Positions 6,465 to 37,440 are shown, numbered from the stretch's first letter. The stretch is 64,000 bases of DNA from a virus (IMGVR_UViG_3300036771_000024:55392-119391), one strand, 5' to 3'. Notes: a model not told the origin generated them from the sequence alone. Translations and numbers: made by a program.

Positions 6465-9400
6465 GTGGCGCGTCGGCTAGGTGAGGCGTTCGTCTCCATC
6501 GAAGCCGACGCGTCTCTTTTCCGTCCCACGGCTATAGCCGGGATGAAGAAGGCGCTCGCCGGCGTGACCGGGAACATCAAGATCACCGCTGACATGGACC
6601 CGAAGAGGGCCGAGCAGGGGATCGCGGCGCTGAAGCTGCGGATGGAGGCGCTGTCGCAGATCCTGGCGAAGCTGCGCGCCAGCGTGGACACGAAGTCGGC
6701 TGAGGCGTCGGTCGTGAAGCTGCAAGCGGACCTGCACGGCCTCGCTAAGAGCGTCAGCAAGATCACGTTCCAGCCGGACACGCGGAAGCTGGACGCCGCC
6801 ATCGCCAAGGCGCAGACCGAGCTTCGCGGGCTCATGAAGGACCTGAGCAAGGTCACGCTCCAGGCGGACACCACGAAGCTGGACACGGCCATCGCCAAGA
6901 GCAAGGCCCTGCTCCGCTCGCTGGAACGGCAGGCGTCCGAGTTGCAGCTCGACGCGGATGTCACCAAGATCGACTCGAAGATAGCGAACCTGAATAAGGA
7001 AACCGCTGTCATCAACAAGGCCCTGGGGAAGATGAAGGCCGATGTTGACATCGACAAGGCACTGTACCGCCTGTACGCGATCGAAGCTGAGATCAAGCTG
7101 CTCAACTCCGACGCGAAGAAGATCGAGCTTATCGCGAAAACCAACGCGATCAACGTCCAGATCGCCGGAGTCCTGAAGCACATCGATGACCTGGGGAAGG
7201 AGAAGGCTGACCTCGCCGCGAACACCACGATCATCAAGGCGCAGATCGCTGATGTGCACGCGCGTATCGCGGCGCTCTCACAGGAGAAGATCGACCTCAC
7301 CGCGAATATCGACACGAGCGTCCTGCTGAACGCCGAGCAGAGGATGCTCGGCCTGGAAGCTGCCACGTCGAAGATGGCGGGGACCACGAAGGACGCCACG
7401 AAGGCGTCCGCGGGGCTCCAGGGAATATGGACGGGCGGCTGGCTCCGCGGTGCCATCCTGGGTGTCGGCATCTGGCACATCGCGCTTGACGGCCTGCTGG
7501 AAATCATCATCATCGTGACCGCCTCGCTGATCGCCCTGGCTGCGGGCGCGGCTGGCCTGGCCGAGTCCGCCAGGAACATCGCCACGCAGATGAACAGCGT
7601 GCGGACGGCATCATCAGCTCTCGGGCAGAACATCCAGCCGCTGACCGGCAAGCTGGACAACCTGATGAAGTCGATGGCATCCCGGTCGATCGAGATTTTC
7701 GGTGGCGGCCTGAACCTGATCAAGAACCAGGCAGGAGGGGTCCTGTCCCGGATCGAGCCGGTTGTCAGCCTGTTCGACACGTGGGTCGCGAAGATCGACA
7801 TATGGGCTGCGCACAACCGTGACTTCGGCGCGGCTATCAACTCGGGCCGCCAGTTCCTGGAGCAGCTCGGCAAGATCATCGGTATCCTGACGAACGCTAT
7901 CTCGAACCTGCTCCAGAAAGACCCGGGGATCGCGCATTTCCTCCTCGACTTCGTCCAGGGGGCGGTGCTCCTGCTGGACGCGTTCAGTAAGCTGCCGAGG
8001 CCGATCGTGGAGGCCACCCTGGCGATCCACGGGGCATACCTGTGGCTGAGGCTGCTCGTCGCGCTGCCGATCCTGGCGTTCGCGAAGTCGCTGGGGATCC
8101 TGTCAGCTAAGCAGCTCGAATCAGCTGGTACCGCGCTGAAATTCAGTAATGTCGTGAAGTTCCTGGCCACCAACCCGTTCGGGTGGGCGACGGTAGCCGC
8201 GATCACGGTCGGGCTGCTGGCCTGGCAGCTCACCCAGGCGACCGGTGCGGCTAAGAGCTTCATCGGCTCGCTGGAAACAGGGCTGGCTAACGCCAGTGCC
8301 AGTCAGGCGATCAGCCAGATCAGCATTGACATCGGGCTGCTCAACGCGCAGATCGACCGGGTCCCGGCTCGTGTCGGCAACCTGGAACTATCGGTTGTCG
8401 GTTTCGCGTCGAAGGCTGGTACTTCTTTCAACAATGTCAGCCACGACCTGAACAAGGGAGACATCAACGGCGCGCTGACCGACATTGCCCGCACCGCTTA
8501 CAACGCGGTGCGGGCTTTCTTCGGGTTCCAGTCCGTGGGCCCGCAGATCAAGCAGACCCAGAACGACGTGGGGAAATTCCGCGAGGAGATCGTCCACCTG
8601 TCTGCTGAGCAGACACGCCTGTTCCACACGACCGGGACGCTGGTCACGGGGCAGAACGACCTGCACCTCGGCACCTTGTCTGTCTCGCAGGCGTTCGCCC
8701 TGATGGACCTGGCGGGGGTGAAAGCATCCGACAGTATAGATGTGCAGTACCAGAAGGTCAAGAACCTCGTCACCGGGTACAACGCCCTGTCCATCCGCGG
8801 CGGTATCCTGAAGAACTCCGTCAACGCGATCACGTTCGCCGCGCTCCAGCAGCAGGAGAAAGTCGGGCAGCTCAACTCGGCGTGGGACACGTTCTTCCAG
8901 ACGGTCACCGGTGGCGCATCCGGGTTCCTCTCATTCGCGACGCAGACCATCGGCCTGTACTCCACGCTGACCACCAACGGTGTCAAGCTGGCGTCCAGCA
9001 ACGGGAAGGTCCACGCCAGCCTGTCGGGTCTCGCAGCCGGGGCTCAGGACACAACCATCTCCATGACGGGGCTGAACCTCGCGTCGATCAACGCCAGGCA
9101 GACGTTCCTCCAGTCCGCTGGCGCGGCCAACACGCAGATCGACAACCTGACCCTGCTGGCGAACGCAGCCGGGCTTGGCCAGAAGGGCACCGACCTGCTC
9201 ACCCGGGCGACGCAGGACATGGTGGCGTCGCTGCTGCCCGCGACCGGTAAGTCCCAGGAACTGACCGACGCGCTGTTCGTCCTGGCGCAGCGTGGCGGCT
9301 ACCAGGGTGCGAACAGTTTCAAGGCCCTGTCGCAGTGGGTGAGTAAAACCAAGAACCCCATGCAGGATCTGGATAAGATCACTTCCACGCTGACGACCGA

Positions 9401-11966
9401 CGCGTCGAACCTGACCGACGACGTGAAAAACCTGTCGGTCGCGCTGGGGCAGAACCTGAACGACGCGATGTCGCAGGCTATCCTCCAGGCCACCGGCGGT
9501 CAGCAGGCGTTCGATGATTTCGCCAACGCGATGCTGAACACCAGGACTAACAGCGCGGCGCAGCAGAAGGCCGCCCTGGAGCTAGGTAATCAGCTCCTCG
9601 CGCTGACGGGGAACACGAAGGATGCGCACAAGGAATTCGACGCGTTCGCCATCCAGATGGGAATCAGCCGCGAGGATGCCGACAAGCTGTGGAGTGAGAT
9701 AGCGGGCAAGCTCACCCCGACGCTGGCCGAGCAGGCGACCAAGACCCTGCCGAACCTGAAGAACGCGTTCACCGACTGGGCGAAGAACGGCCTGAACTTC
9801 GGCAAGACGAAAGCCCATGACCTGTGGAACGAGATCACCACCAAGCTGGGCCCGAAGCTGGACGGCCTGGGTAACCTGGCTGCCGGTCCCGTCAAGCAGA
9901 AGTTCATCGACTGGGCGATCCACGGCCTGGGCCTGACACGGCAGCAGGCGATCAACCTGTGGAAAGAAGTGGACACCCTCCAGCAGCACATCGACGCGCT
10001 GCACGGCAAGGCTGTTGTCGTGGCCATGCGGGGTGACGGCTCGTACGTGATCCGCGGTACCAACCTCCAGTCCGCACCGGGGACAGGCGGGCCGAACGCG
10101 ATCTCCCGTGGCGCAGCCGAAGGCTGGTACGTCTCCGGTGGCACCCCGGGCAAGGACAGCGTTGCGGCGATGCTGATGCCAGGCGAGCTGGTCGTCCCCA
10201 CGAACATGGTCAACGCCGGGGTAGTCGACCACCTCCGCGGCAAGCTACCCGGGTTCGCTGGTGGCGGTGTCGCAGGCACCACGCCTAACCTGCATAAGAA
10301 CCCGCAGTTCGTTGACGGCATGTACTCGACGTTCAACAAGACGATGACCGCTGCGATGGTCTCGGCGATGCACGCATCACTGCGGGCGTCGGAGATAGCA
10401 GCGCTCGCAGCGGCGAAGGCTGCGGCTGCGGCTGCGGCCAAAGCATCCGCGGGTGTCCCTGGCGCGCTAGGAGGCCCGACCTCAGCGTCCGCGTCGCAGG
10501 CGCAGTCTTATGCGAGCGGCCGGCTCGGTGCGTACGGGTGGAGTGCCGGGCAGATGAGGCCGCTGATCCTGCTGTGGAACCAGGAGTCAGGCTGGAACCG
10601 GTTCGCCCGCAACCCTGGCAGCGGCGCGTACGGAATCCCGCAGGCACTCCCGCCCGGGAAGATGGGCTCGGCAGCTAACCCGCCCACCTCATCAGCAGCA
10701 GCGCAGATCAACTGGGGCCTGGGTTACATCAGGTCCGTCTACGGTTCACCGGCCGGTGCGTGGGCACACGAAATTGCCCACAACTGGTACGCGAAGGGTG
10801 GTCTCGTTCCCGGTTATGCTACTGGCGGGCTGGCCTCGAACCAGGCTGGTGAGCGCGCTAAGTACTTCGGTCTGACACATTCGGTCGCGATGGACCTGGC
10901 GCACGCCAAGACCGGCTCTTACACGTCCGGTCACCGTAAGACAATCATCAACGAGCTGGGCACGCTGGCGAAACGGCAGAAAACCGAGCTGTCAGCCTAC
11001 GGTGCTGCTGCCCGTCTGTCTAACGCCGCTAACCTGGGGCACCTTGCAGCCGCAGCGCATGCCGAGCAGCGCACAGCCTCAGACCAGGCGCTCACCCACG
11101 TGCACCCCGGGTGGGCGAAGGACCTGCGCATGTACCTGGGGCGGCTGGCAGCTACTAAGCCCTCGGCCAGCGGTGGAGGCGGAGGCAGCGGCGGAGGTGG
11201 AGGCGGGGGTAGCAGCGGCGGGAGCGGACCGGGTTACCCGGCGTGGAACCCGCCGAAGGTAACAGGAAGCGGTGGTGTCGCCGGGCTGCAAGCCAAGCTG
11301 AAGGACGTGGAACACCACGAGGGCCTGGACTACCTGGGTCTGCGTCACGCGTTTTTCGCCGGGCCGAAGAAATACCTGGACAAGACCACGCTGAGCGAAC
11401 TGGAGACGCTCCGGCAGCGGCAGGCCGCGTCGCAGACCGTGTTCTCGCTGCTGAACCGCAGCGCTGCTAACGTGTCCGACGTTAACCTCGCCAAGCTGGC
11501 CACGGTAGTCAAGGCGGAGGCAACGACGGTGACAGACAAGGCGCTGAACAGGCTCCCCGGAGGGCACCCCGGGTGGGCTCACGGATTGTGGCACTGGCTG
11601 GAGCAGCTCGGCGGGTTCGGCAAGGCCGGGGTGGCACCCTTCCTGCCCGGCGTCACCCACACGTTCGGCGGGGATGTCGGTAACACGATCGCCGAGTTCC
11701 TATCCTCGGTGATCAGCCCGCTGGGCCTGGCAGACGGCGGCATGGTCAGGTCGTATGACAAGGGCGGGTGGATGCCACCGGGACTGTCCATGTCGTACAA
11801 CGGCACGGGCAGGCCCGAACCTGTCGGCTCCCCGTCTAACGTGGTTGTCACGTTGCAGATCGACGCGGGCAGCAGTAACGCCGACCAGTTCCTCGCGGCG
11901 ATGATCAAGAAGTACGTGAAGGTAAGCGGTGGAGGTAACGTGCAGAAGGCTTTCGGGGCGCACTGA
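6465..11966 (+). CDS. tape measure protein
   Basis: 1833 aa, long coiled-coil-like N-terminal region, TM segments (aa ~320-370), Gly-rich linker SGGGGGSGGGGGGGSSGGSG, embedded region ESGWNRFARNPGSGAYGIPQALP resembling peptidoglycan-hydrolase motifs seen in actinophage TMPs; GGAG RBS. Confidence 0.9.
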   Translation: MARRLGEAFVSIEADASLFRPTAIAGMKKALAGVTGNIKITADMDPKRAEQGIAALKLRMEALSQILAKLRASVDTKSAEASVVKLQADLHGLAKSVSKITFQPDTRKLDAAIAKAQTELRGLMKDLSKVTLQADTTKLDTAIAKSKALLRSLERQASELQLDADVTKIDSKIANLNKETAVINKALGKMKADVDIDKALYRLYAIEAEIKLLNSDAKKIELIAKTNAINVQIAGVLKHIDDLGKEKADLAANTTIIKAQIADVHARIAALSQEKIDLTANIDTSVLLNAEQRMLGLEAATSKMAGTTKDATKASAGLQGIWTGGWLRGAILGVGIWHIALDGLLEIIIIVTASLIALAAGAAGLAESARNIATQMNSVRTASSALGQNIQPLTGKLDNLMKSMASRSIEIFGGGLNLIKNQAGGVLSRIEPVVSLFDTWVAKIDIWAAHNRDFGAAINSGRQFLEQLGKIIGILTNAISNLLQKDPGIAHFLLDFVQGAVLLLDAFSKLPRPIVEATLAIHGAYLWLRLLVALPILAFAKSLGILSAKQLESAGTALKFSNVVKFLATNPFGWATVAAITVGLLAWQLTQATGAAKSFIGSLETGLANASASQAISQISIDIGLLNAQIDRVPARVGNLELSVVGFASKAGTSFNNVSHDLNKGDINGALTDIARTAYNAVRAFFGFQSVGPQIKQTQNDVGKFREEIVHLSAEQTRLFHTTGTLVTGQNDLHLGTLSVSQAFALMDLAGVKASDSIDVQYQKVKNLVTGYNALSIRGGILKNSVNAITFAALQQQEKVGQLNSAWDTFFQTVTGGASGFLSFATQTIGLYSTLTTNGVKLASSNGKVHASLSGLAAGAQDTTISMTGLNLASINARQTFLQSAGAANTQIDNLTLLANAAGLGQKGTDLLTRATQDMVASLLPATGKSQELTDALFVLAQRGGYQGANSFKALSQWVSKTKNPMQDLDKITSTLTTDASNLTDDVKNLSVALGQNLNDAMSQAILQATGGQQAFDDFANAMLNTRTNSAAQQKAALELGNQLLALTGNTKDAHKEFDAFAIQMGISREDADKLWSEIAGKLTPTLAEQATKTLPNLKNAFTDWAKNGLNFGKTKAHDLWNEITTKLGPKLDGLGNLAAGPVKQKFIDWAIHGLGLTRQQAINLWKEVDTLQQHIDALHGKAVVVAMRGDGSYVIRGTNLQSAPGTGGPNAISRGAAEGWYVSGGTPGKDSVAAMLMPGELVVPTNMVNAGVVDHLRGKLPGFAGGGVAGTTPNLHKNPQFVDGMYSTFNKTMTAAMVSAMHASLRASEIAALAAAKAAAAAAAKASAGVPGALGGPTSASASQAQSYASGRLGAYGWSAGQMRPLILLWNQESGWNRFARNPGSGAYGIPQALPPGKMGSAANPPTSSAAAQINWGLGYIRSVYGSPAGAWAHEIAHNWYAKGGLVPGYATGGLASNQAGERAKYFGLTHSVAMDLAHAKTGSYTSGHRKTIINELGTLAKRQKTELSAYGAAARLSNAANLGHLAAAAHAEQRTASDQALTHVHPGWAKDLRMYLGRLAATKPSASGGGGGSGGGGGGGSSGGSGPGYPAWNPPKVTGSGGVAGLQAKLKDVEHHEGLDYLGLRHAFFAGPKKYLDKTTLSELETLRQRQAASQTVFSLLNRSAANVSDVNLAKLATVVKAEATTVTDKALNRLPGGHPGWAHGLWHWLEQLGGFGKAGVAPFLPGVTHTFGGDVGNTIAEFLSSVISPLGLADGGMVRSYDKGGWMPPGLSMSYNGTGRPEPVGSPSNVVVTLQIDAGSSNADQFLAAMIKKYVKVSGGGNVQKAFGAH

Positions 11967-19574: not shown

Positions 19575-20690
19575 CTACGGGAGAGACCAGGCTTGGTTCC
19601 TCTGACCGTTGAACGGGTAGACGATAACCTTCGCACCGTTACTGGTATTGAACGCGGCGTCGTCCAGAACCCGGCCACCGTCGAAGGCGGTCGGGAACCG
19701 GTAGTAAACGCCGCAGTGGCAGGCACCGGCACCGTGAACCGGGGTGATGGTCTGCCTCGGAGCGGCAGCACACACGCCCAGCACCACGCGGCCGGTCCCG
19801 TTGGGAGCGGTCACGCACCAGTGATCGTTGGCAGCCAGCTTCATCTGGTAGGTCCCGCTGTTACCGATCGGGACCAGCTTCCACTGCTGGTTGTTGTTTC
19901 CGTTGCACCGCCAGATTTCCAGCGGATTGAACGCTGCCAGGTGACCGCCAGTGTTGTCCAGGCAGGACACGCTGTGGTTGGAGAACGTGGATACCTGACC
20001 AGGGCCGATCACAGGCGGAGGCGGCGGGGTCGTGACGCAGACCTTGCCGGTGATGTTCCCGTCACCGACACTGTTTCCGTCATTGTTGGAACTGGAATCG
20101 ACCCATGTTTCGCATCCGCTGGTGTCGTAGGTCCAGCTGTAAGCACCGTCCTGGACGGTACCGAAACTCGTACTAGCCGGGAAAGCCTGCTTATACCAGT
20201 TTTCCGTTGAATGGAACCCGGTACCTGTTGAGACACCGTGGTCGTCCTCACTTGCCGGTACGAGCGAACTGTCCGGCGCGTTATCTGAGAAGACATGCTG
20301 CGTGTAGCCACCTGAGAAGTTACCCGTAACGGCGGGCGACGTGATACTCAGGGCCGCTCCCACGTGCGGGCTGTTCACGTTCGGGGCACCAGCGCCCGGA
20401 CGAGTGGTGAACGTCCCGTGGTCGCTGAGCGTCACGGCGTAACAGGAATCTCCTGCCGGTGTCACAGGACCGCAGTTCGTGTCCGTGGCATCCACGTTGA
20501 CAGTCAGCGTGCGGGTGAACGTGTCATCCGCCCAGATTGCGGGTGTGCCGTGACCACCGTCGGGCCTGTTGCTAACAGCGGTAGAAGCGCTTGTCGCAGC
20601 CGAGGCTGCTGACGTAGATAGCGACAGCACCCCCAGCGCTACGCCTGCGGCTGCCAGTACCGGCGCAGCCGCATGCCTGAATTTGAACAT
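19575..20690 (-). CDS. secreted protein with C-terminal ricin-B-type lectin domain
   Basis: Signal peptide; C-terminal repeats with QxW motifs (NNNQQWKL, RNQAWSL), conserved Cys pairs; Ser/Thr/Pro-rich linker PPPPPV. Confidence 0.6.
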   Translation of the reverse strand: MFKFRHAAAPVLAAAGVALGVLSLSTSAASAATSASTAVSNRPDGGHGTPAIWADDTFTRTLTVNVDATDTNCGPVTPAGDSCYAVTLSDHGTFTTRPGAGAPNVNSPHVGAALSITSPAVTGNFSGGYTQHVFSDNAPDSSLVPASEDDHGVSTGTGFHSTENWYKQAFPASTSFGTVQDGAYSWTYDTSGCETWVDSSSNNDGNSVGDGNITGKVCVTTPPPPPVIGPGQVSTFSNHSVSCLDNTGGHLAAFNPLEIWRCNGNNNQQWKLVPIGNSGTYQMKLAANDHWCVTAPNGTGRVVLGVCAAAPRQTITPVHGAGACHCGVYYRFPTAFDGGRVLDDAAFNTSNGAKVIVYPFNGQRNQAWSLP

Positions 20691-22762: not shown

Positions 22763-23680
22763 ATGCCAGAACTATCACCCGGCCGGCCTGCCATGAGGCA
22801 GATCATGGAAATGCTCGAAGAGGCAGGCAGCGACGGTCTCTACGCCACCGAGATCGCGAAGCGTTTCGCCGAGCAAGTACCCGGTAAGACGTACCAGTGG
22901 ACAAACGGCCTCCTAGCCCGGGCTAAGTGCGACGGCAGGGCGCGCCGCACCCCGCACCGCCAGCTACCGCCCGGTTTCACCGATAAGCGGATGCGCTCGT
23001 TCCGCTGGTTCATTACCGATAAGGGCCTGAAGTACCTGCGGCCGATCCCGATACCGGATATCGCGACGCTGGATGAGGCACCGAACCCGAAGCGGATCCT
23101 GGAGATCCTCAAGGACGCCGGGGCTGAGGGGATGCGTGCCCCGGACATCGCGCGGAACTTCCATGTGCCCCCGGTGTACATGCAGTCGATGGCGCACCTG
23201 CGGGACGAGTCGCGGGTGCTCCAGCGGAAGATGACGTGGACGAACCAGATCCTGGACCGGTTCAAGCGGAACGGGTACGCCCGCAAGGGCGGTAAGGAAA
23301 TGTCACCGCACTACCACAACGTCCCCGCGTACCGGTGGTTCATCACGCCGGAGGGGGTTTCTTACCTGGCTGACGGGCTGGATGAGGGCCGCAGGCAGAT
23401 GCGGCGTGACCGTGAGGCAGCCGAGGACGCCCGCCTGGCGGCGCACCGGAAGCACCTGAATGACCTGCTGACGCAGGCGTACGTGGAGAACGACCCGGCG
23501 ACCACGACGGCGTGCGAACGGGAACGAGTGATGCGGAAGCTGCGCGAAGAGGGCTGCACGCTACAGGACATCGGTGATGTCTTCGGTATCACCCGGGAAC
23601 GGGTCCGCCAGGTCATCCATGGTGTCAACGTGAACCCGTGCCAGTGCGAGAAATGCGCGATGTTCGACGGGCCGTGGTGA
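22763..23680 (+). CDS. DNA-binding regulator with two winged-helix-like repeats and C-terminal sigma-70 region-4-like HTH
   Basis: Repeats ILEMLEEAGSDGLYATEIAKRF / ILEILKDAGAEGMRAPDIARNF; C-terminal EGCTLQDIGDVFGITRERVRQVI. Confidence 0.5.
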   Translation: MPELSPGRPAMRQIMEMLEEAGSDGLYATEIAKRFAEQVPGKTYQWTNGLLARAKCDGRARRTPHRQLPPGFTDKRMRSFRWFITDKGLKYLRPIPIPDIATLDEAPNPKRILEILKDAGAEGMRAPDIARNFHVPPVYMQSMAHLRDESRVLQRKMTWTNQILDRFKRNGYARKGGKEMSPHYHNVPAYRWFITPEGVSYLADGLDEGRRQMRRDREAAEDARLAAHRKHLNDLLTQAYVENDPATTTACERERVMRKLREEGCTLQDIGDVFGITRERVRQVIHGVNVNPCQCEKCAMFDGPW

Positions 23681-26335: not shown

Positions 26336-26378
26336 TCCTGTTGGCGTAGCGCCCTGTCCTAGCGTAGTATTACCTGTT

Positions 26379-27155: not shown

Positions 27156-27624
27156 CCCGTAGGGTGACAATTTCTGGTGGATTGTCTGCGGGTGTTCGTG
27201 GCCGGGGCTGACGATGTAACAGTCGTCACCCCGGCTGCGGGCGTAGAAGAGGCATACGACATCCTCGTAGACGGGGGTGTCGCACCCCAGAAAGCCGCTG
27301 ACCTGGCCGTGGGTTTCGCCCGGATCGGCCCGCCGGGGCCAGAGTGGGCGCGGAGCCACGAAGAAATGTACCCCGTGTTCCAGGCGCGGAAGTTCCTCCG
27401 CCTGCGGGCGAGCCTTACGTGAAAAAGAACTGTAGGAACAGGGGGCAGGGCCTGTACTGTGCCTGTTTCTGCCTGAAATGCTCAGCCTGCCACCATTGCA
27501 AACGACACTGGCGTGGCTGTCACGCAGGCTGCTCACCAGCGCCACGTGTCAGCGGGAAGATCAAAGGTAAATGGGTATAGTGCCTGCCCGTCCACCCGGA
27601 TGTGGCACCAGCCAGCCGTACGTA

Positions 27625-27668
27625 CCTGCGGAATCGAACCGCGCACACAGAGTCGAACTGTGCGGGCA
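27625..27668 (-). other. two tRNA T-arm-like fragments (GGTTCGATTCC, GTTCGACTC) on minus strand
   Basis: Plus-strand CGGAATCGAACCGCG and GAGTCGAACTGTGC; no complementary acceptor stem found. Confidence 0.25.
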
Positions 27669-27796
27669 GGCAGAATCTATGCTACGTTAGACGTAGAGCA
27701 CAGCTTCCTCGTCGTCATTGTCTTCATGGTCATCATCGTTGTTATGCTCCAGCTTCCTCATCATCACCGCACCTGCCAGGACTGTACCCGGTAGGC

Positions 27797-27831
27797 ACCG
27801 TAGGTCGCGGGTTCGACACCCGCCCCCGCCT
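27797..27831 (+). tRNA. tRNA 3'-half-like element: anticodon-stem 3' strand ACCGT, variable AGGTC, T-arm GCGGG-TTCGACA-CCCGC, acceptor 3' strand CCCCGCC, discriminator T
   Basis: Read directly; pairs perfectly with the 5'-half at 27921. Confidence 0.35.
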
Positions 27832-27920
27832 CGAAAGTAAAACCGCAGGACAGTTGCTACCGCGTTCCTGCGGGCCGGGCGCTGAAAATAAGACGCCAGG
27901 CTAGAGCGGTAGCGCACCAT

Positions 27921-27957
27921 GGCGGGGTAGCTCAGTGGCAGAGCGACGGTAGTCACA
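27921..27957 (+). tRNA. tRNA 5'-half-like element: acceptor GGCGGGG, TA, D-arm GCTC-AGTGGCA-GAGC, G, anticodon-stem 5' strand ACGGT
   Basis: Canonical tRNA 5' sequence; no matching 3' half downstream; complementary 3' half lies 89 nt UPSTREAM. Confidence 0.35.
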
Positions 27958-28010
27958 AGAACCCGGGGCGGGACACCGGGCAGGGATAGGGCGGCTTACA
28001 TGTCGTTAGT

Positions 28011-28071
28011 GGGGCAGGATGCCCCGCTCACCTTGGGAGTGAGATTGCAGGTTCGAGTCCTGTCAACGCTG
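28011..28071 (+). tRNA. tRNA-like element (D-arm GGGG-CAGGATG-CCCC, anticodon arm CTCAC-CTTGGGA-GTGAG with TGG anticodon, T-arm GCAGG-TTCGAGT-CCTGT) with poor acceptor pairing
   Basis: Arms read from sequence; acceptor stem only 4/7 pairs, variable loop 3 nt; possible degenerate/pseudo-tRNA. Confidence 0.2.
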
Positions 28072-28115
28072 TTACAGGCGTTGTGGCGTAAATGGTAAAC
28101 GCACACGACAATCAA

Positions 28116-28149
28116 GGGGGCCTAGCTCAGGGTTAGTAGCTAGGCCCCC
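28116..28149 (-). terminator. perfect 12-bp hairpin (GGGGGCCTAGCT-N10-AGCTAGGCCCCC); 5' arm mimics a tRNA acceptor+D-arm start; likely terminator of minus-strand operon
   Basis: Read from sequence; lies 200 nt downstream of minus-strand gene end at 28355. Confidence 0.4.
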
Positions 28150-28354
28150 GTCGTGCGTCCAGGTTCAGACAGGGTAGATGGTGAGCTTCACCCCCGTGCG
28201 TCCTTCGGCTGCTTCCATGGCGCGTGCTGCGGGGTGCAGGTGCCGGCCGCAGGCACGCTGCTGATCCACCCTGCGGTCCCCCACGGCGATCCACCACTGC
28301 GCATAGCAGGGGCACGGGTCACCGGTGCGGTCTTCGATGCTCTCGCACTTAGCC

Positions 28355-28846
28355 CTATCCACGCCTCACATCCTCTTTACGGAGAGGGACAGGGACGACT
28401 TCACCGGAGAGCCTGGACCACTTGCCGATCCACTCGTCGTGCTCCCCTTCCGCGTCCATGGCCGTGGCGTACAAGTGCAGCAGCCAGTCAGGCGCGTAGT
28501 TCTTCCCGGTCGTGGTGAGGTAAGCGGGCCGGTCGGGTCCTGACCGCCCGCGGATGTGGTTCTTGTCCACCCAGTCGCGGAGCTTCGCCATGCGCTCACG
28601 GCCCACCATGAGGCTCTTGGGCTCAGCGGCAGGCTTCGACGGCTTCGTGGGTGCGCTCCCGGGTGCGTGCCCGGCGCGTATCCACGGTTCGAGGAACTCG
28701 CGTAGCTCCCGGGCGTGTTCCTCGGTGAGGTCGAGTTCCCGCTTCTTGCCGTCGATCGACACGAACACGGTCTCGTCAGCGGGGACCCGCTTGCCGGTCT
28801 CCGCGAAGGTGAGGTCATCCGACAGGACGATTTGCAGTTCCTTCAT
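28355..28846 (-). CDS. lsr2: Lsr2-like nucleoid-associated protein with C-terminal extension
   Basis: N-terminal dimerisation-domain-like DETVFVSIDGKKRELDLTEEHARELREFLEPWIRAGH; central RERMAKLRDWVDKNHIRGRSGPDR resembles Lsr2 DNA-binding RGR motif. Confidence 0.55.
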   Translation of the reverse strand: MKELQIVLSDDLTFAETGKRVPADETVFVSIDGKKRELDLTEEHARELREFLEPWIRAGHAPGSAPTKPSKPAAEPKSLMVGRERMAKLRDWVDKNHIRGRSGPDRPAYLTTTGKNYAPDWLLHLYATAMDAEGEHDEWIGKWSRLSGEVVPVPLRKEDVRRG

Positions 28847-29106
28847 GCTGGCAGCAGCTCCTCGAACAGATGCCACACCAGGGGCTCTATGATCGCCGTG
28901 CCACGGTACTCCGCATCATCAGGGACCTGATGACCGGTACCGAACACGCGCAGGCGGGCCGGGTGCGGTTCCCCGACACCGGAGAGCGCCCAGAAATGCA
29001 GGGGTGATACCTGACCGAAATGGGCAGCGACGTGGACGATCGGGCCGGTGAGCTGGACCTCGTGCCACTCGTCATCGACGGGGACCTCGTAGCGGAAGAC
29101 CTTCAT
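28843..29106 (-). CDS. hypothetical protein
   Basis: 87 aa; stop/start overlap with neighbours (operon). Confidence 0.45.
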   Translation of the reverse strand: MKVFRYEVPVDDEWHEVQLTGPIVHVAAHFGQVSPLHFWALSGVGEPHPARLRVFGTGHQVPDDAEYRGTAIIEPLVWHLFEELLPA

Positions 29107-29480
29107 GCGTTCGCCCCGTTCTTCCGGGCTGCGTCACGCACATACGGGGCCTGACGCCGGCCGAGTTCCGCTACGTAGTCGGCCTTGGTGAGCCCGGCAC
29201 CCTTGGGGGCGAGGTACTCGTCGTCGTACTTGTAGCGGTATTTCGCACCGGACAGGATGCCACCGCGGAGGGTGGTCCTGGTGCGCTGCGTCCCGCAGTC
29301 GGGACAGGTGTAGGTGAGCTGGTACACGCCTTGCCTGACCGGCCTGGATGTGACGCCCTTGGGGAGGGGCCCGACACGCATCTTCGGGAAGTCGTGCCGG
29401 TCACCTTTGCATGATGCGATCCCGTCTGAGATCGTGTTCAGGTGTTCGTCACCGGTCATGTAGACCTTGACTGTTGCCAC
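29103..29480 (-). CDS. hypothetical zinc-ribbon protein
   Basis: CPDCG...C motif; 125 aa. Confidence 0.45.
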   Translation of the reverse strand: MATVKVYMTGDEHLNTISDGIASCKGDRHDFPKMRVGPLPKGVTSRPVRQGVYQLTYTCPDCGTQRTRTTLRGGILSGAKYRYKYDDEYLAPKGAGLTKADYVAELGRRQAPYVRDAARKNGANA

Positions 29481-29591
29481 TGGTAGGTCTCTTCCTAGTA
29501 GGAGAGTGCTTGTCCTTCCAGTGTAGCACTATGTCCTAACCCAGTAAACCGTCCCATGTACCCTCTACGTCTCATAGGGTATGATTGAAGC

Positions 29592-30179
29592 ATGACACAG
29601 CCAGAGAACTCCTGCCTAGACGACAGCCAGTCTCCGACTGTGCACATAGAGTCAGCAGGTGGCAGGCACGGGGGCGGGGTCATGGTAGACCCCGAGCGCA
29701 TGTCAGCAGCACGCAAAAGCGCCATGCTGGAACGCGCCGAGCTATCCGACCTGTCCAAGATACTCGAACTATCCAGGATCGCCGCTGCTAACAACGTCAG
29801 CACCAGCGGCGAGCGGGGAGTACCCGAGCTGCGGGCACTGCTCGCAGCCGCAGGGGTCCAGCTCGGCGGTAAGCGCATCGGGATCTCCCGTGACGAGCTG
29901 GCGAAACTGGAAACTGGCGGGCGGAAACGCCCGAGGATCACAACGCTCAGGAAATTTCTCGACACAGTAAACTACGCCAGGGCCCAAAGGGACAAGCCAC
30001 CGATCGACGTGGAAGACCTACAGGTGCCCGGCGAGGTCCTTATCCCCGAGACACGCGAGCCGGACCCGTGGGAGCCCGGCGCTGATGAGCGGGAAGCGAT
30101 CGACGCGTACCAGGAAGCCTCCAACGATATTTACTACGCAATGAAAGGACAACCAGAGGACGCAGAGGCAGGTATATGA
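29592..30179 (+). CDS. hypothetical protein, possible HTH regulator, divergent from Lsr2 operon
   Basis: 195 aa; helix-rich segment SAARKSAMLERAELSDLSKILELSRIAAANNV. Confidence 0.4.
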   Translation: MTQPENSCLDDSQSPTVHIESAGGRHGGGVMVDPERMSAARKSAMLERAELSDLSKILELSRIAAANNVSTSGERGVPELRALLAAAGVQLGGKRIGISRDELAKLETGGRKRPRITTLRKFLDTVNYARAQRDKPPIDVEDLQVPGEVLIPETREPDPWEPGADEREAIDAYQEASNDIYYAMKGQPEDAEAGI

Positions 30180-30658
30180 CGACAATGCCATCCCCTGTAG
30201 ATCTGCGTATCTGGCTGCTGTCCCGCACCCTGGGCTGGTCCGGCCGGAAAGTCGCGGGTGAGGTCGGCGTCAGCCAGCCCACCGTGGTCCGCACCCTGGA
30301 ACGGCTCGATAAGGAACCCCCTACCGAGCAGGAAATCAATGATTTCGTGAACGTCTCAGCGACCCCGCCACGCGGGCTCCCGGCGATCACCGGGAAGATC
30401 AAGGCCGCGAAACGGCCCAGCCTGCCAGGGAGATGGATCTTCCACGCCTGCGCTGTGCTGGTCACCCTCGCCGTGGTCGCTATCATGGCCGGTTTCGCCG
30501 TCAAGCTGCTGAGCCCGGCTCAGGCACAGGTACCAGCGTCAGGCCAGATCGCATGCGTGCGGTTCGCGCCTGACGGGAGCATCGCCGGGTTCGGCTCACT
30601 GAACCACGGCACCTGCCCGCGCGGCCAGTTCGCTGTCACGATCGTGCAGAACCCGTAA
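30176..30658 (+). CDS. membrane-anchored HTH protein (N-terminal HTH, single TM, C-terminal extracytoplasmic domain)
   Basis: HTH GWSGRKVAGEVGVSQPTVVRTLERL; TM IFHACAVLVTLAVVAIMAGFAV. Confidence 0.5.
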   Translation: MTTMPSPVDLRIWLLSRTLGWSGRKVAGEVGVSQPTVVRTLERLDKEPPTEQEINDFVNVSATPPRGLPAITGKIKAAKRPSLPGRWIFHACAVLVTLAVVAIMAGFAVKLLSPAQAQVPASGQIACVRFAPDGSIAGFGSLNHGTCPRGQFAVTIVQNP

Positions 30659-30780
30659 GAAAACAAGCGGCCCCAGGAAGGGATAACACAAGGGTGTCAT
30701 AGGCTGTCACAGCACTCCCCCGAAGGCCAAGGGGATGAAGAGTGGCTAAGCCCTTGTGAAGGGAAGACAAAAAGTCTCAC

Positions 30781-30804
30781 GCGGGTTCGACCCCCGCCCG
30801 CCGC
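30781..30804 (+). other. second tRNA 3'-end-like fragment (GCGGG-TTCGACC-CCCGC-CCGCCGC)
   Basis: Similar to fragment at 27807-27830; located in intergenic upstream of 30845 gene. Confidence 0.25.
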
Positions 30805-30844
30805 ACGAACAGGTTACCGGACTAATCAAAGGAATCATTAACCC

Positions 30845-31147
30845 ATGAGCGACTGGGAAGAGTTCACCGCCTGGCACCGTGAGCATACAGTCAAGGCGAT
30901 GTCCGACTCCGCGTACGTCATGTCCCTGGTCCCCAGGGCCGAAGAGGTAGACGTGAAGTTCGCGGTCGAGCTGGGACTGGCGATCATGCTGGACAAGCCC
31001 ATCGTGGCGGTTGTCCAGCCGGGCGTGCCGGTCCCCCCTGGACTGCGGAAGGTAGCTGAGGCTGTCATCACGGCCGACCTTGACACCGAAGAGGGCAAGG
31101 AGCACACAGCCAGGATGCTCAAATTGTTCATGGCTGACCACACGTGA
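30845..31147 (+). CDS. hypothetical protein
   Basis: 100 aa. Confidence 0.45.
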   Translation: MSDWEEFTAWHREHTVKAMSDSAYVMSLVPRAEEVDVKFAVELGLAIMLDKPIVAVVQPGVPVPPGLRKVAEAVITADLDTEEGKEHTARMLKLFMADHT

Positions 31148-31260
31148 GAGGGAAGAAAGGGGTCAAGTGCTGCGGGCGGTGGAACCAGCCCTGCCGTTGC
31201 CCCTCACCCTGCACCCGCTATCACGGCGGGCCATGCAGGTGCCCGAACTGCGCGTGCAGC

Positions 31261-31488
31261 TTACAGCCAGTCCCCGTCACGGTCGAACATGATCGTGGTG
31301 TGAATCGTGCAGTCTGCCTGGGGCGGGCCGTCGTACTGCCAGTCGAACCAGGGGCGGCACTGGCAGATCATCGGGGCGAACCGCACCATCTGCTGCCGTT
31401 CTTCCAGGTGGTAGTCGTTGAGTGCTTTGATGTACCGGCGCACGTCAGCGTTCAGTGGCACGCTGTCCCACTCTGGGTCTTGCCTCAC
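31261..31488 (-). CDS. hypothetical protein
   Basis: 75 aa protein-like; competes with overlapping plus-strand Cys-rich ORF 31144.. Confidence 0.35.
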   Translation of the reverse strand: MRQDPEWDSVPLNADVRRYIKALNDYHLEERQQMVRFAPMICQCRPWFDWQYDGPPQADCTIHTTIMFDRDGDWL

Positions 31489-31514
31489 TTGACTCCTATG
31501 GTATGATTGTATGT

Positions 31515-31754
31515 ATGAAGATAACAGAACAGAAGGTTCCTGGTCGTATCGATCTTGAGAGGGTCACGATCAACCTCATCCCGCGAGCCTCAGACGCTCT
31601 CCACGAGGGTGTGGAGATGACAGGGGACAGCAAGACCGACTTCATCAACCGTGCCATACAGGCATTCTCCTGGCTGCAAGAGGTCATTCACAGCGGCGGC
31701 ACTGTCCTGGTCCGAGACGAAAAAGGCGAAACGTCCCAGATCCTGTTCCTGTAA
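31515..31754 (+). CDS. ribbon-helix-helix (CopG/Arc-type) DNA-binding protein
   Basis: RVTINLIPRASDALHEGVEMTGDSKTDFINRAIQAF = beta-strand + two helices; high GC3 in this frame; AT-rich upstream region. Confidence 0.45.
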   Translation: MKITEQKVPGRIDLERVTINLIPRASDALHEGVEMTGDSKTDFINRAIQAFSWLQEVIHSGGTVLVRDEKGETSQILFL

Positions 31755-34335: not shown

Positions 34336-34660
34336 GTCGTCGTGTTCCCTTCGGGTGACAGAACAGGTGAACCCTCATTGTACCACGCACGTAATTTCAG
34401 GGTAGCAGCCTGTCCTAGCTGACCCTGACCATGGTAGCGTGGGGGTGTGACATTCAGGAGGCTCCAGGATGTTCAAAACCCGCAACGAGGACCGCAACAA
34501 GACAGTCGGACATGGAACCAGACAACCCAGAAACTCCCGTGGTAAGCCGGCTACTGTCAGCCATCTCCGACGTGTATCCCGAGGTCAAGGCGAGACTACC
34601 AAGGAACTCGCGAAACTCGCCAAGCGCAGGCACAGAGCAAGACGATGAGGAGCATGACTG

Positions 34661-36439: not shown

Positions 36440-36664
36440 ATGAGCCGGGTGCGGCTCACCAGGCAGCAGCGGCGGGCCGCCATGCACCTGTCAGCGTTGA
36501 AGAAGGACGAGTACACGGGGCTGTGGTGCTGCTGGGTGTGCGCCCGGCCCATGGACCCGGTGCTGTACGACAACGGGTTCGCGTCCCATCCGGACTGCGA
36601 CCCCGGTGAGATATCCGAAAGGTTCCCGCCGGAGACAGAACCTGCATGGCTGCGGCTAGCATAG
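36440..36664 (+). CDS. hypothetical protein
   Basis: 74 aa. Confidence 0.4.
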   Translation: MSRVRLTRQQRRAAMHLSALKKDEYTGLWCCWVCARPMDPVLYDNGFASHPDCDPGEISERFPPETEPAWLRLA

Positions 36665-37440
36665 ACCCCGTGATAGCAGCGCTCGCAGTCCACGCGCACC
36701 CGGCCGTGACAGCGCTCGTGATCCACGCGCACCCAGTGATGGCGGCTCTCGTGATCCACGCGCACCCGGCCGTGGCAGCCGCAGCACGTCATGGCGCGCG
36801 CATGCTGATACGCCAGATCGCCGGCTGGTTCGCTGCTGTCCTGACACGCAAACCCTCCGTCACCGTGGTCACCCCGACGTGGGAACGGCGCAGCCTGCTG
36901 ACCCGCCGGTGCATCCCGTCCGTACGGGGGCAGACATACCGTGGCCCTGTGAGCCACGTCATCGTGTCAGACGGGCCCGATGAGGGCCTGGCCGGGGTGG
37001 ATGGGGTGAAGTTCCTGCCCGCGCACGTCCTGGAACAGAACAGGGGGCTGACCGCACGCAGGCACGGCGCTGAACTGGCTGACGGGGAACTGATCGCGTA
37101 CCTCGATGATGATAACGCGTGGCGGCCAGACCACCTCGAAAGGCTGGTCTCCGCTCTGGTCAGGAGCGGTGCTGACTTCGCGTACTCCCGTGCGCTATGC
37201 CATGACAGCGGCCGGACCTGGACGATCGGGCAGTCAGCACCCGTGTTCGGGCAGATCGACACGTCCGTGATCGTGCACCGCCGTGAACTCCTCGGCCTGT
37301 CAACATGGGAGGCGTCCACGGGACCAGCCGACTGGTCGCTGGTGTCCCGGTGGGTCGCTGCCGGTGCGACGTGGGCGCACGTGCCGCACGTGACAATGGA
37401 CTACTATCATCCTGCTGGAGCAGATCATGCAGCCGTTTAA
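36646..37440 (+). CDS. GT2-family glycosyltransferase (start uncertain; ATG at 36802 is alternative)
   Basis: VVTPTWERRSLLTRRCIPSVRGQTY (GT-A N-terminus), YLDDDNAW (DxD), catalytic-base region. Confidence 0.55.
   Translation: MAAASIDPVIAALAVHAHPAVTALVIHAHPVMAALVIHAHPAVAAAARHGARMLIRQIAGWFAAVLTRKPSVTVVTPTWERRSLLTRRCIPSVRGQTYRGPVSHVIVSDGPDEGLAGVDGVKFLPAHVLEQNRGLTARRHGAELADGELIAYLDDDNAWRPDHLERLVSALVRSGADFAYSRALCHDSGRTWTIGQSAPVFGQIDTSVIVHRRELLGLSTWEASTGPADWSLVSRWVAAGATWAHVPHVTMDYYHPAGADHAAV
36664..36770 (+). repeat. 3 tandem copies of a 33-bp unit (GCGCTCG-Y-GRTCCACGCGCACCC-RG-YGRTGRCAG)
   Basis: Read directly; encodes HAHPAVTALVI x3 if translated. Confidence 0.7.

Follow-up and report, generated by a model that had tools for sequence, protein, structure and literature searches.

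The divergent regulatory node described here belongs to an uncultured actinobacterial phage and lies in a 64-kb stretch of DNA (hereafter the window) out of a 119-kb source contig. The best overall explanation, and one that we hold with slightly more confidence than doubt, is that it forms a cassette for early-gene control in an uncultured actinobacterial phage lineage. According to this interpretation, a rightward promoter would produce a leaderless mRNA for an XRE-type repressor, a translationally coupled membrane-held helix-turn-helix (HTH) protein and probably a 100-aa protein, and a leftward promoter would produce a four-gene mRNA that is led by a Shine-Dalgarno sequence and ends at a strong hairpin. 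Both promoters would be of host type. A 16-bp element that overlaps the leftward promoter recurs at the promoters of a DUF7873 gene and of a RecT/exonuclease operon, so the three sites are probably recognized and jointly regulated by one of the HTH proteins encoded by the cassette.

A conserved cassette without cultured relatives

The initial annotation proposed a divergent regulatory node of five genes around a 111-nt spacer, and this was borne out. Five ORFs were verified at 28355-28876 (minus), 28843-29106 (minus), 29103-29480 (minus), 29592-30179 (plus) and 30176-30658 (plus), with the spacer between the third and the fourth. The coding composition of these ORFs is high-GC, with GC3 values of 0.70-0.81. 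The rightward side consists of the following features.

29592..30179, plus strand: XRE/Cro-CI-type HTH protein, 195 aa, HTH at residues ~80-134
30176..30658, plus strand: membrane-anchored HTH protein, 160 aa, recognized by profiles, AlphaFold and Foldseek
30845..31147, plus strand: gene for a 100-aa protein, PHROG 18163 (E 8.8e-21), with a weak Nuc_deoxyrib_tr match

The gene for the 100-aa protein holds the same position in contigs L005, L007, L008 and L009 and is probably the last of the rightward unit. Beyond it, a small ORF at 31515-31754 resembles a ribbon-helix-helix protein by eye, an assignment that was dropped for want of Pfam support.

The whole cassette is syntenic in the window and in metagenomic contigs L005-L011, which derive from different samples, and the same divergent arrangement was found in at least 8 independent contigs whose proteins are 45-75% identical. 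The XRE gene, its membrane-HTH neighbor and the promoter layout persist together in the relatives L017 (43% identity) and L014 (31%). The cassette family is carried by more than 40 metagenome contigs, and a search of IMG/VR found one relative. Among 50,697 phage records, there was no match to the region 27500-31500 by megablast, nor by tblastn to the XRE protein, the membrane-HTH protein or a 353-aa protein of the left arm; the search with the Lsr2-like protein recovered Streptomyces phage Success only, at 32% identity over 55% of the length. An Rfam scan of the whole 64-kb window returned nothing at gathering score, and a PADLOC scan of 7 proteins gave no defence-system match beyond a 13.9-bit RmrA fragment.

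Two predicted promoters back to back

The intergenic spacer appears to hold two back-to-back promoters that are conserved across 8 diverged metagenomic contigs.

29481..29591, strand not applicable: divergent promoter spacer, 111 bp, GC 48%, defined by sequence and the 8-locus alignment A5
29520..29528, minus strand: extended -10 of the leftward promoter, TGCTACACT, from invariant columns of A5
29580..29585, plus strand: rightward promoter -10 hexamer, TATGAT, 6 nt ahead of ATG 29592, from A5
29523..29538, plus strand: 16-bp element GTAGCAC-TA-TGTCCTA, consensus GTAKCA-N3-TGTCCTA, from the 8-locus alignment

With a GC content of 48% against ~63%, the spacer is among the two lowest-GC stretches of the profiled 26.0-35.5 kb. 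Its invariant alignment columns are the TG, TA and T of the minus strand, the TA of the plus-strand -10, and TGTCCTA. On the leftward side, the TG, the TA and the final T occur in 8/8 loci, and TGnTACnnT can be read in all of them; transcription is predicted to start near 29513, and the Shine-Dalgarno sequence GGAAGAG lies upstream of GTG 29480. On the rightward side, TAnnnT precedes the aligned ATGAC by 6-7 nt in 8/8 loci, and L017 has TACGCT 7 nt ahead of ATGACA. The distance of only 6 nt between the -10 and ATG 29592 implies a leaderless mRNA for the XRE protein. JGI had called the start of this gene at ATG 29682; we rejected this call because the protein sequence of the N-terminus, MTQPEN, is conserved and a -10 lies 6-7 nt before the ATG at 29592.

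A simple scan of the spacer with sigma-70 consensus promoter and terminator models found nothing, the -35 regions being weak. A generic search for repeats likewise detected only short ones at chance level. It was the cross-locus alignment, rather than repeat finding within 29481-29591, that revealed the 16-bp element. The motif GTACC...GGTAC around the rightward promoter was considered as an operator and set aside, as it coincides with -35/-10 positions and its symmetry is inconsistent.

One element at three operons

The 16-bp element, a candidate operator, overlaps both the leftward -10 and the promoter spacer. Its TGTCCTA core is invariant in 8 loci and carries one change in the relatives at 43% and 31% identity; with its flanks (AGTGTAKCACNNTGTCCTAA), 0.01 occurrences would be expected by chance in the window. 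Across the 64 kb, TGTCCTA is present in 3 copies only; each lies between genes, reads on the plus strand and follows GTAGCN-N3. Two of these lie at other operons.

26346..26361, plus strand: second copy, GTAGCGCCCTGTCCTA, upstream of the DUF7873 gene, with syntenic copies elsewhere
34402..34417, plus strand: third copy, GTAGCAGCCTGTCCTA, in the divergent spacer of the RecT-like/exonuclease operon, with syntenic copies

The second copy precedes a -10-like TAGTAT by 3 nt and the ATG (26379) of the DUF7873 gene by 17 nt, a geometry relative to its -10 that is unlike that of the other two; its syntenic counterparts are at position 4808 of L007 and 2977 of L008. The third copy separates the RecT-like/exonuclease operon (start 34335, minus strand) from plus-strand genes leading toward a GH25 lysin, its minus strand again reads TGCTACCCT, and counterparts are found in L007, L009, L006 and L011. 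A reading of TGTCCTA as a -35 box was discarded, since its spacing to any -10 is inconsistent across the three sites. Contig L014 has leftward genes that differ from those of the window, and its HTH pair has no Lsr2 gene nearby; the element is therefore associated with the HTH pair and not with Lsr2.

Which protein might occupy these sites can be approached from the symmetry of the element, which is partial (4-5/6 positions). We consider the soluble XRE protein the most likely binder, acting in a Cro-like manner to shut down the promoters after early expression. A partial palindrome is, however, more in keeping with a monomeric sigma-4-like HTH than with an XRE dimer, and the membrane protein or a host factor could instead be the binder.

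The XRE-type protein and the question of lysogeny

The HTH predicted in the first rightward gene holds at the level of the family. By itself, the XRE protein scores below threshold (HTH_31, 22.6 bits versus 27; second model, 20.9 versus 23), and it has no relative in PHROGs, NCBIfam or PADLOC. Among its 62 homologues, however, all of the aligned members (26/26) match HTH_31 and HTH_3, with a best E-value of 4e-7. PDB profile searches with the family matched 3b7h, a prophage protein (E 0.006), and 8bny, an immunity repressor (E 0.07). Conservation extends to the C-terminal motifs DLQVPGEVLIPE and AYQEASNDIYYA.

In several respects the protein resembles Cro/CI-type XRE regulators: it has the HTH_3/HTH_31 domain, a divergent promoter whose opposing -10 is covered by an operator-like element, and nearest solved relatives that are prophage or immunity-repressor proteins. 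It differs from typical XRE proteins in the longer segment (~80 aa) ahead of the HTH, the first ~25 residues of which are conserved in the family, and from the Cro/CI type in that an acidic C-terminal region is also conserved. In addition, the gene has neither a divergently transcribed HTH partner nor lysogeny genes nearby.

This resemblance bears on an immunity or lysogeny switch, as the initial annotation had suggested, in which the XRE protein would maintain a prophage as CI does and the membrane HTH protein would make induction responsive to signals from the envelope. The affinity to 3b7h and 8bny and the similar layout of the divergent promoters are consistent with this, as is the observation that Lsr2-like genes are ~3x commoner in temperate actinophages (PMC8612146); moreover, 55 kb of the source contig lies outside the 64-kb window. 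Counter to such a switch, the 24 larger ORFs of the window include no match to an integrase, excisionase or partition (ParAB) protein. The family is absent from 185,579 representative bacterial and archaeal genomes, where only two spurious HTH matches arose, yet it is present on the metagenome contigs counted above. Both HTH genes are on the same strand, their divergent partner is the zinc-ribbon/Lsr2 operon and not a cro-type gene, and the spacer holds a single 16-bp element and not tandem operators. Recombination genes would be governed by the same element, the neighboring genes encode lytic-cycle functions (RecT, a Cas4-like exonuclease and the GH25 lysin), and the outer domain of the membrane protein is dispensable across a whole subclade. 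We found no evidence of a temperate lifestyle within the 64-kb window and regard a lysogeny switch as unlikely.

A membrane-anchored HTH protein

The start codon of the membrane-HTH gene overlaps the XRE stop by 4 bp (ATGA), as it does in L007 and L008, and this overlap is predicted to couple the two genes translationally. The 160-aa product has an HTH at residues 7-46, a fourth helix at 51-62 and a disordered linker with a TPPxGLP motif. Again the HTH is evident from the family, with 29/32 homologues matching HTH_23, for which the window protein falls short (20.5 versus 24.6), and with a three-helix HTH modeled by AlphaFold at the same residues. Foldseek retrieved DeoR and sigma region-4 HTHs with probabilities of 0.99-1.0 and every E-value above 0.1; owing to the small domain sizes, all fold-search E-values exceed 0.08. 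The closest structure is that of a DeoR HTH bound to DNA, with an rmsd of 1.0 A over 40 residues. SQPTVVRTL, the putative recognition helix, hardly varies, which is what one would expect if it reads DNA. Searches with this protein gave nothing in PHROGs or PADLOC, and the PDB sequence search was not significant.

The transmembrane (TM) helix and small outer domain that had been proposed for this protein are also supported. A single pass at residues ~87-112 (Kyte-Doolittle 2.63, pLDDT >90), with five K/R on its N-terminal side, is shared by all family members examined (42/42), and it is followed by a beta mini-domain of ~45 aa (~120-158) with two conserved Cys. The outer domain is nevertheless variable. 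It has been lost in one whole subclade in which the membrane helix is kept, and 21/32 close homologues end 2-13 residues past the TM helix. Since so many homologues stop there, envelope sensing cannot be the core role, and the suggested coupling to host envelope signals did not find support. Nor is the outer domain a recent private extension, an idea that was rejected because the domain is present in 8/11 distant representatives. We infer that the conserved property of the family is the HTH plus its anchor, thus anchoring and not sensing, and that the long form carries its two-Cys mini-domain as an optional addition. The membrane would hold the protein so that its HTH faces the cytoplasm, and there it most likely binds either DNA or its XRE partner.

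To our knowledge, membrane-anchored HTH proteins are little described in phages. The architecture, with a cytoplasmic N-terminal DNA-binding domain, one TM helix and an outer C-terminal domain, is like that of ToxR/CadC-type one-component regulators (PMC5430869). The HTH here is of a three-helix sigma-4/DeoR-like type rather than an OmpR-type winged helix, and there was no match to Trans_reg_C (the OmpR/PhoB-type winged helix). Furthermore, the outer domain comprises only ~45 aa and can be lost, and the protein is encoded by a phage.

In size, N-in topology and possession of a small outer domain, the protein also recalls single-pass anti-sigma factors (RslA, RsdA and the ZAS family), and an anti-sigma architecture had been put forward for it. 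Anti-sigma-domain and zf-HC2 profiles matched none of the 32 members, there is no Cys/His motif in cytoplasmic residues 1-86, and thus no HxxxCxxC, and no sigma gene adjoins the gene, the upstream neighbor being XRE. The cytoplasmic domain has the fold of a DNA-binding HTH and resembles the sigma region-4 side of such a partnership and not the anti-sigma side, so the proposal did not hold. A related reading is that the protein serves host take-over as an anchored sigma region-4 mimic or anti-sigma-like protein that binds no DNA. At the membrane it would sequester a host factor whose normal target is region 4 (an anti-sigma, a WhiB-like protein or a part of RNA polymerase) and so redirect transcription. 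Foldseek matches to region 4 of SigD, SigL and SigR (probability 0.99), an NCBIfam sigma factor region 4 fragment (E 2e-5), Sigma70_r4_2 matches in 7/32 members, the anti-sigma-like topology and one homologue labelled anti-sigma factor by JGI auto-annotation are in line with this. The profile, motif and neighborhood results just given argue against it, as do the closer match to DNA-bound DeoR, the near-invariant SQPTVVRTL helix and the conserved DNA element that accompanies the gene pair, and we judge sequestration to be quite improbable.

Alternatively, the anchored HTH may bind the three sites and thereby hold the phage genome at the membrane, where, together with the Lsr2-like protein, it could form a zone of replication or transcription. 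Such a role would parallel that of RocS and Noc, which are cellular DNA-membrane tethers. It would also resemble that of p16.7, the membrane protein by which phage phi29 recruits its replicating DNA (PMC4974454). Like p16.7, the protein is small, presumably early and combines a helical, here putative, DNA-binding domain with a membrane anchor. Tethering would suit the conservation of HTH plus anchor, the asymmetric element, which fits a monomeric HTH, and the co-located Lsr2-like gene; host Lsr2 marks phage DNA replication zones in mycobacteria (PMC10066036). The reasoning is purely architectural, however. The orientation is opposite to that of p16.7, whose TM helix is N-terminal, there is no sequence or fold match to p16.7 and no homology to RocS or Noc, three sites located at promoters look more like regulation, and in L014 the gene pair has no Lsr2 gene nearby. 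We therefore think it rather unlikely that tethering is the function. A more far-reaching version is that the 160-aa protein founds a phage-specific class of membrane-tethered sigma-region-4-like DNA binders. These would pin the genome via the three sites, build a membrane-attached replication/transcription zone with the Lsr2-like protein and, in the long form, be tuned to the envelope or redox state through the disulfide-capable outer domain. This we consider a long shot. Early-gene control remains our preferred reading.

The leftward operon and its Lsr2-like protein

The leftward unit differs from the three-gene, Lsr2-headed operon initially described. It contains four genes, the zinc-ribbon gene is first (29480->29103), followed by DUF7352, and the Lsr2-like gene is third. 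The fourth, for a 65-aa Cys-rich protein (28362->28165), had been missed. Successive genes overlap by 4, 4 and 8 bp.

29103..29480, minus strand: first gene, 125-aa CHCC protein, from alignment A6, a weak Zn_ribbon_SprT match and PHROG 4480
28843..29106, minus strand: DUF7352 protein, 87 aa, PF24043 (E 2.3e-17)
28355..28846, minus strand: Lsr2-like protein, 163 aa from ATG 28846, from PF11774, hhalign and Foldseek
28165..28362, minus strand: fourth gene, 65-aa Cys-rich protein, from the ORF and a GC3 of 0.78
28116..28149, minus strand: perfect 12-bp hairpin, GGGGGCCUAGCU / AGCUAGGCCCCC, from inverted repeat I4 and RNA folding

The 125-aa protein is probably a zinc ribbon: C24, H29, C59 and C62 (CKGDRH...CPDCG) are invariant in alignment A6, which spans 8 loci with a mean identity of 69%, although a PDB sequence search found no significant relative. 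Its MAT(V/I)KV N-terminus is conserved, which fixes GTG 29480 as the start. DUF7352 is a variable insert of the operon that is missing or replaced in most related contigs. The gene is present in the window, L001 and L002, missing from L005, L006, L008, L009 and L010, and exchanged for a 51-aa gene in L011. The 65-aa protein matched nothing in Pfam, PHROG or PADLOC; its gene occupies the same position in L001, L007 and L009. Just downstream of this last gene is the hairpin, with a dG of -38.6 kcal/mol (z -6.0) and no equally stable structure among shuffled sequences (0/200). It is probably the terminator of the operon.

Other gene callers place the start of the Lsr2-like protein at ATG 28846, which is probably the true one; the alternative, GTG 28876, would yield 173 aa. 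In this putative DNA-organising protein, a linker joins the oligomerisation domain to a helical C-terminal domain of non-canonical type, which is followed by a ~17-aa private tail. The Lsr2 assignment stands for the N-terminal domain, which matches PF11774 (E 3.5e-10 to 3.8e-10, 39.7-39.8 bits versus a cutoff of 29.6) in the window protein and in 26/26 family members. The protein also matches PHROG 1223 (E 5.7e-14) and PDB 4e1p (E 6e-7), which is the top Foldseek match as well (probability 0.99). Alignment to Lsr2 of M. tuberculosis with hhalign (probability 96.9, residues 2-99) extends into the C-terminal domain only along the first helix of the Lsr2 DNA-binding domain. PF23359, the C-terminal profile, matches weakly in 8/26 members (best E 0.011) and does not match the window protein, and a PDB fold search with the C-terminal part matched no solved structure. 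As judged from these profile and fold comparisons, only the N-terminal domain is clearly Lsr2. What had been described as an unusual C-terminal extension is for the most part a family-wide non-canonical domain, and only the ~17-aa tail is private to the window protein.

The N-terminal oligomerisation domain matches those of Lsr2/CgpS-type silencers and actinophage Lsr2-like proteins (PMC8612146, PMC10066036), and the gene adjoins a local dip in GC content, a setting reported for several phage lsr2 loci. In contrast to Lsr2, the C-terminal domain is ~2x as long, and the RGR 'AT-hook' is not conserved in the family: the window protein and the two homologues closest to it have RGR, and the rest carry replacements (RGL, RS). 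Lsr2-like proteins encoded by phages have yet to be assigned roles (PMC10066036).

Implications

The cassette marks a lineage represented by contigs of up to ~120 kb, for which the 50,697 phage records include no cultured relatives. It offers a compact and deeply conserved test bed, with predicted promoters, a 16-bp element common to three operons, a soluble and an anchored HTH protein that would be co-translated, and natural variants that either have or lack the outer domain. Judging from its sequence, the anchored regulator is a putative new kind of membrane-anchored DNA-binding protein, coupled to a protein of the classic repressor type. The locus would allow one to study how an actinophage times its early genes, and whether the membrane serves it to organise or restrain its DNA-binding proteins.

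Gene organization and conservation

All five open reading frames named in the initial annotation were found where it placed them, with composition of the coding type; the feature is real and non-random, and its domain calls are broadly right. The Lsr2-like gene does not head a three-gene operon, as was then proposed, but stands third in a leftward unit, because a zinc-ribbon gene and a DUF7352 gene precede it among four genes with successive overlaps of 4, 4 and 8 bp:

29480 to 29103, minus strand, first gene: 125-aa probable zinc-ribbon protein with invariant C24, H29, C59 and C62
29106 to 28843, minus strand, second gene: DUF7352 protein (E 2e-17)
28846 to 28355, minus strand, third gene: Lsr2-like protein
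28362 to 28165, minus strand, fourth gene: 65-aa Cys-rich protein

A perfect 12-bp hairpin at 28116-28149 (dG -38.6 kcal/mol, z -6.0) closes the unit, and independent gene calls start the Lsr2-like gene at ATG 28846 (163 aa). Across a 111-bp spacer (29481-29591) lie two rightward genes, for a 195-aa XRE-type protein (29592-30179) and a 160-aa membrane-anchored HTH protein (30176-30658).

The whole arrangement is repeated in the 104-kb IMG/VR contig L005 and in related loci L006-L011, from different samples and at 45-75% protein identity. The shared order is the Lsr2-like gene, an optional small gene and the zinc-ribbon gene, all leftward, then the spacer, then the XRE and membrane HTH genes, both rightward; the DUF7352 gene is confined to the window lineage. 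The HTH gene pair is retained in L017 (43% identity), L013 (34%) and L014 (31%), the last with other genes on its leftward side. At the conserved core are the promoter spacer and the HTH pair, to which the Lsr2 operon is the usual, not obligatory, partner. In L007, similarity of the zinc-ribbon gene (6897-7271, uncalled in the source annotation) is lost beyond residue ~70, which looks like a frameshift or assembly error.

The stretch 27795-28072 holds tRNA-like fragments and no clean tRNA. ARAGORN calls tRNA-Pro(TGG) at 28001-28072; Rfam at gathering score returns nothing for the stretch, and in E-value mode its tRNA model needs a 96-nt insert to align 27921-28071 (27.6 bits versus 29). A piece resembling a 3'-half, GCGGGTTCGACACCCGCCCCCGCC (27806-27829), precedes a 5'-half with acceptor GGCGGGG (27921), with which it would pair. 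The non-coding stretch of ~740 nt carrying tRNA-like pieces is missing from L005.

Predicted promoters and a shared element

The spacer was aligned across eight loci. All eight carry TGnTACnnT on the minus strand (window TGCTACACT, 29528 to 29520), with TG, TA(C) and the final T as invariant columns; this is the predicted extended -10 of the leftward promoter, and GTG 29480 is preceded by the Shine-Dalgarno sequence GGAAGAG. On the plus strand, TAnnnT (window TATGAT, 29580-29585) lies 6-7 nt ahead of an aligned ATGAC in 8 of 8 loci, a placement that is, as judged from sequence, the geometry of a leaderless mRNA. Leaderless mRNAs are common in Actinobacteria. We place the XRE start at ATG 29592 because the N-terminus MTQPEN... 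is conserved as protein.

Between both promoters lies TGTCCTA (29532-29538), invariant in the eight loci, a sequence that no standard promoter element accounts for; extended by its left flank, it reads GTAKCA-N3-TGTCCTA. Bare TGTCCTA occurs three times in 64 kb, about the chance count; each copy lies between genes, on the plus strand and with the same left flank, and the element with flanks (AGTGTAKCACNNTGTCCTAA) is expected by chance 0.01 times per window:

26346-26361, plus strand: ahead of the DUF7873 gene
29523-29538, plus strand: in the 111-bp spacer
34402-34417, plus strand: between the RecT-like/Cas4-like exonuclease operon and the genes diverging from it

The first and last copies are syntenic in other loci, and L017 and L014 carry the element with one base changed. 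These copies suggest a small regulon, and such conservation and recurrence is the signature of a candidate shared operator. Its dyad symmetry is partial (TAGsAC-N3-GTsCTA, 4-5 of 6 positions) and does not tell whether the reader would be an XRE dimer or a sigma-4-like HTH acting as a monomer.

The encoded proteins

The 195-aa protein of the window alone falls just under Pfam cutoffs; the HTH proposed for it holds at family level, HTH_31 and HTH_3 being matched by all 26 aligned homologues, and by sequence it is of XRE type.

Both the HTH and the TM helix proposed for the 160-aa protein are borne out. A three-helix HTH (residues 7-46; HTH_23 in 29/32 homologues) and a fourth helix are followed by a disordered linker bearing the conserved motif TPPxGLP, then a TM helix at ~87-112 (pLDDT >90, hydropathy 2.63, five K/R on its N side) and a beta mini-domain with two conserved Cys. 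The top Foldseek match is a DNA-bound DeoR HTH (rmsd 1.0 A over 40 residues); other best matches are region 4 of SigD, SigL and SigR, and the NCBIfam match is also sigma region 4. Such matches call to mind a sigma-4 mimic or anti-sigma-like sequestration by this protein; the anti-sigma analogy drawn initially does not hold up, and we consider this explanation unlikely. When 1.84 billion representative proteins were searched exhaustively by HMM, only ~10 full-length family representatives emerged, and the protein is outside any described family. The 2-Cys outer domain is present in 8/11 representatives, and in one subclade, which accounts for 21 of 32 closer homologues, the protein stops 2-13 residues past the TM helix. 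Since a whole subclade lacks the outer domain and keeps the helix, the anchor is the constant feature and the outer domain optional. A constant anchor might also hold phage DNA at the membrane, by analogy with phi29 p16.7 (PMC4974454), an idea to which we give equally little weight. The most distant member, P0143 (L016, 676-1140; 29% identity), has the HTH, TM helix and 2-Cys domain, adjoins a cellular NAD-dependent epimerase-like gene without an XRE gene, and may itself be cellular, a relative of the phage protein.

The Lsr2 assignment stands for the N-terminal domain, which matches PF11774 above the curated cutoff (26/26 family members) and 4e1p in PDB (E 6e-7) and Foldseek (best match) searches; hhalign against M. 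tuberculosis Lsr2 gives probability 96.9. The C-terminus fared differently from its first description as an extension. That alignment reaches only the first helix of the DNA-binding domain, PF23359 is weakly matched by only 8/26 members, and the RGR motif, which the window protein shares with its two nearest homologues, is replaced in other members. The C-terminal half, modelled by AlphaFold as helix-loop-helix-helix, has no counterpart among solved structures in Foldseek; the window protein adds a private tail of ~17 residues. About 11% of actinophages, temperate and virulent alike, have Lsr2-like genes (PMC8612146), and the roles of the phage proteins are unknown (PMC10066036). Carrying such a gene is nothing unusual; what sets this one apart is its C-terminal domain.

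Phage context and lifestyle

The window (63% GC) is phage DNA, as shown by genes for tail, lysis and recombination functions and by an ORF of tape-measure size (6465-11966). Its proteins have identical counterparts on a JGI metagenome contig of 119,391 bp. A search of 50,697 deposited phage genomes gave no nucleotide match to the region and no protein-level match to either HTH protein or to one large left-arm protein. The presence of Lsr2 points to a host in the Actinomycetota.

A 305-aa protein (22763-23680) has a C-terminal sigma-70 region-4 domain (PF04545, E 6e-7) and weak whole-sigma matches (TIGR02937), region 2 not being detected; a phage transcription factor or sigma-like protein is a possible identity, and a similar gene stands ahead of the cassette in L001, L006, L007 and L008. 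A lone minus-strand gene (19575-20690), encoding 371 aa with a ricin-type beta-trefoil lectin domain (E 1e-11), closes the plus-strand structural arm. Two of three glycosyltransferase-like genes lie in that arm, and together they hint that components of the virion or host surface are glycosylated:

3596-4657: PF13524
15211-15849: PF13641, weak and sub-threshold (E 5e-4)
36646-37440: PF00535

A second leaderless-type start, ATG 31515, lies in a 47% GC trough and opens a plus-strand ORF of 79 aa (31515-31754) without a Pfam match; upstream is TTGCCT-16-TG-TATGAT, with 7 nt between the end of the -10 and the ATG. On the opposite strand, the 3' end of the 399-aa exonuclease ORF overlaps it; this exonuclease ORF is probably over-extended, since counterparts in related loci have 331-372 aa.

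A lysogeny or immunity switch had been proposed initially, and a PDB search with the XRE family profile did return one prophage protein and one immunity repressor. That reading is unsupported, because no integrase, excisionase or partition protein was found among the 24 larger ORFs tested in the 64-kb window of the 119,391-bp source contig, no family member occurs in 185,579 representative genomes, and the genes around the cassette encode a methyltransferase, an HNH protein, a RecT-like annealing protein, a Cas4-like exonuclease, a GH25 lysin and glycosyltransferases. There was also no match to a defence-system model. We regard a lysogeny switch as improbable, if slightly less so than sequestration or tethering.

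We lean towards early control, as follows. Early in infection, both promoters would be fired by host RNA polymerase. The XRE protein would be made from the rightward leaderless mRNA, and the ATGA overlap would couple translation of the anchored HTH protein to it; the leftward transcript would supply the zinc-ribbon protein, the Lsr2-like protein and the small Cys-rich one. An HTH protein of the cassette, with the soluble XRE protein favoured as binder, would then sit on the 16-bp element at three promoters and turn them down, and the anchored protein would work at the membrane, on DNA or on its partner. On this reading, the locus of this uncultured actinophage lineage is a cassette for early control, well defined and deeply conserved.
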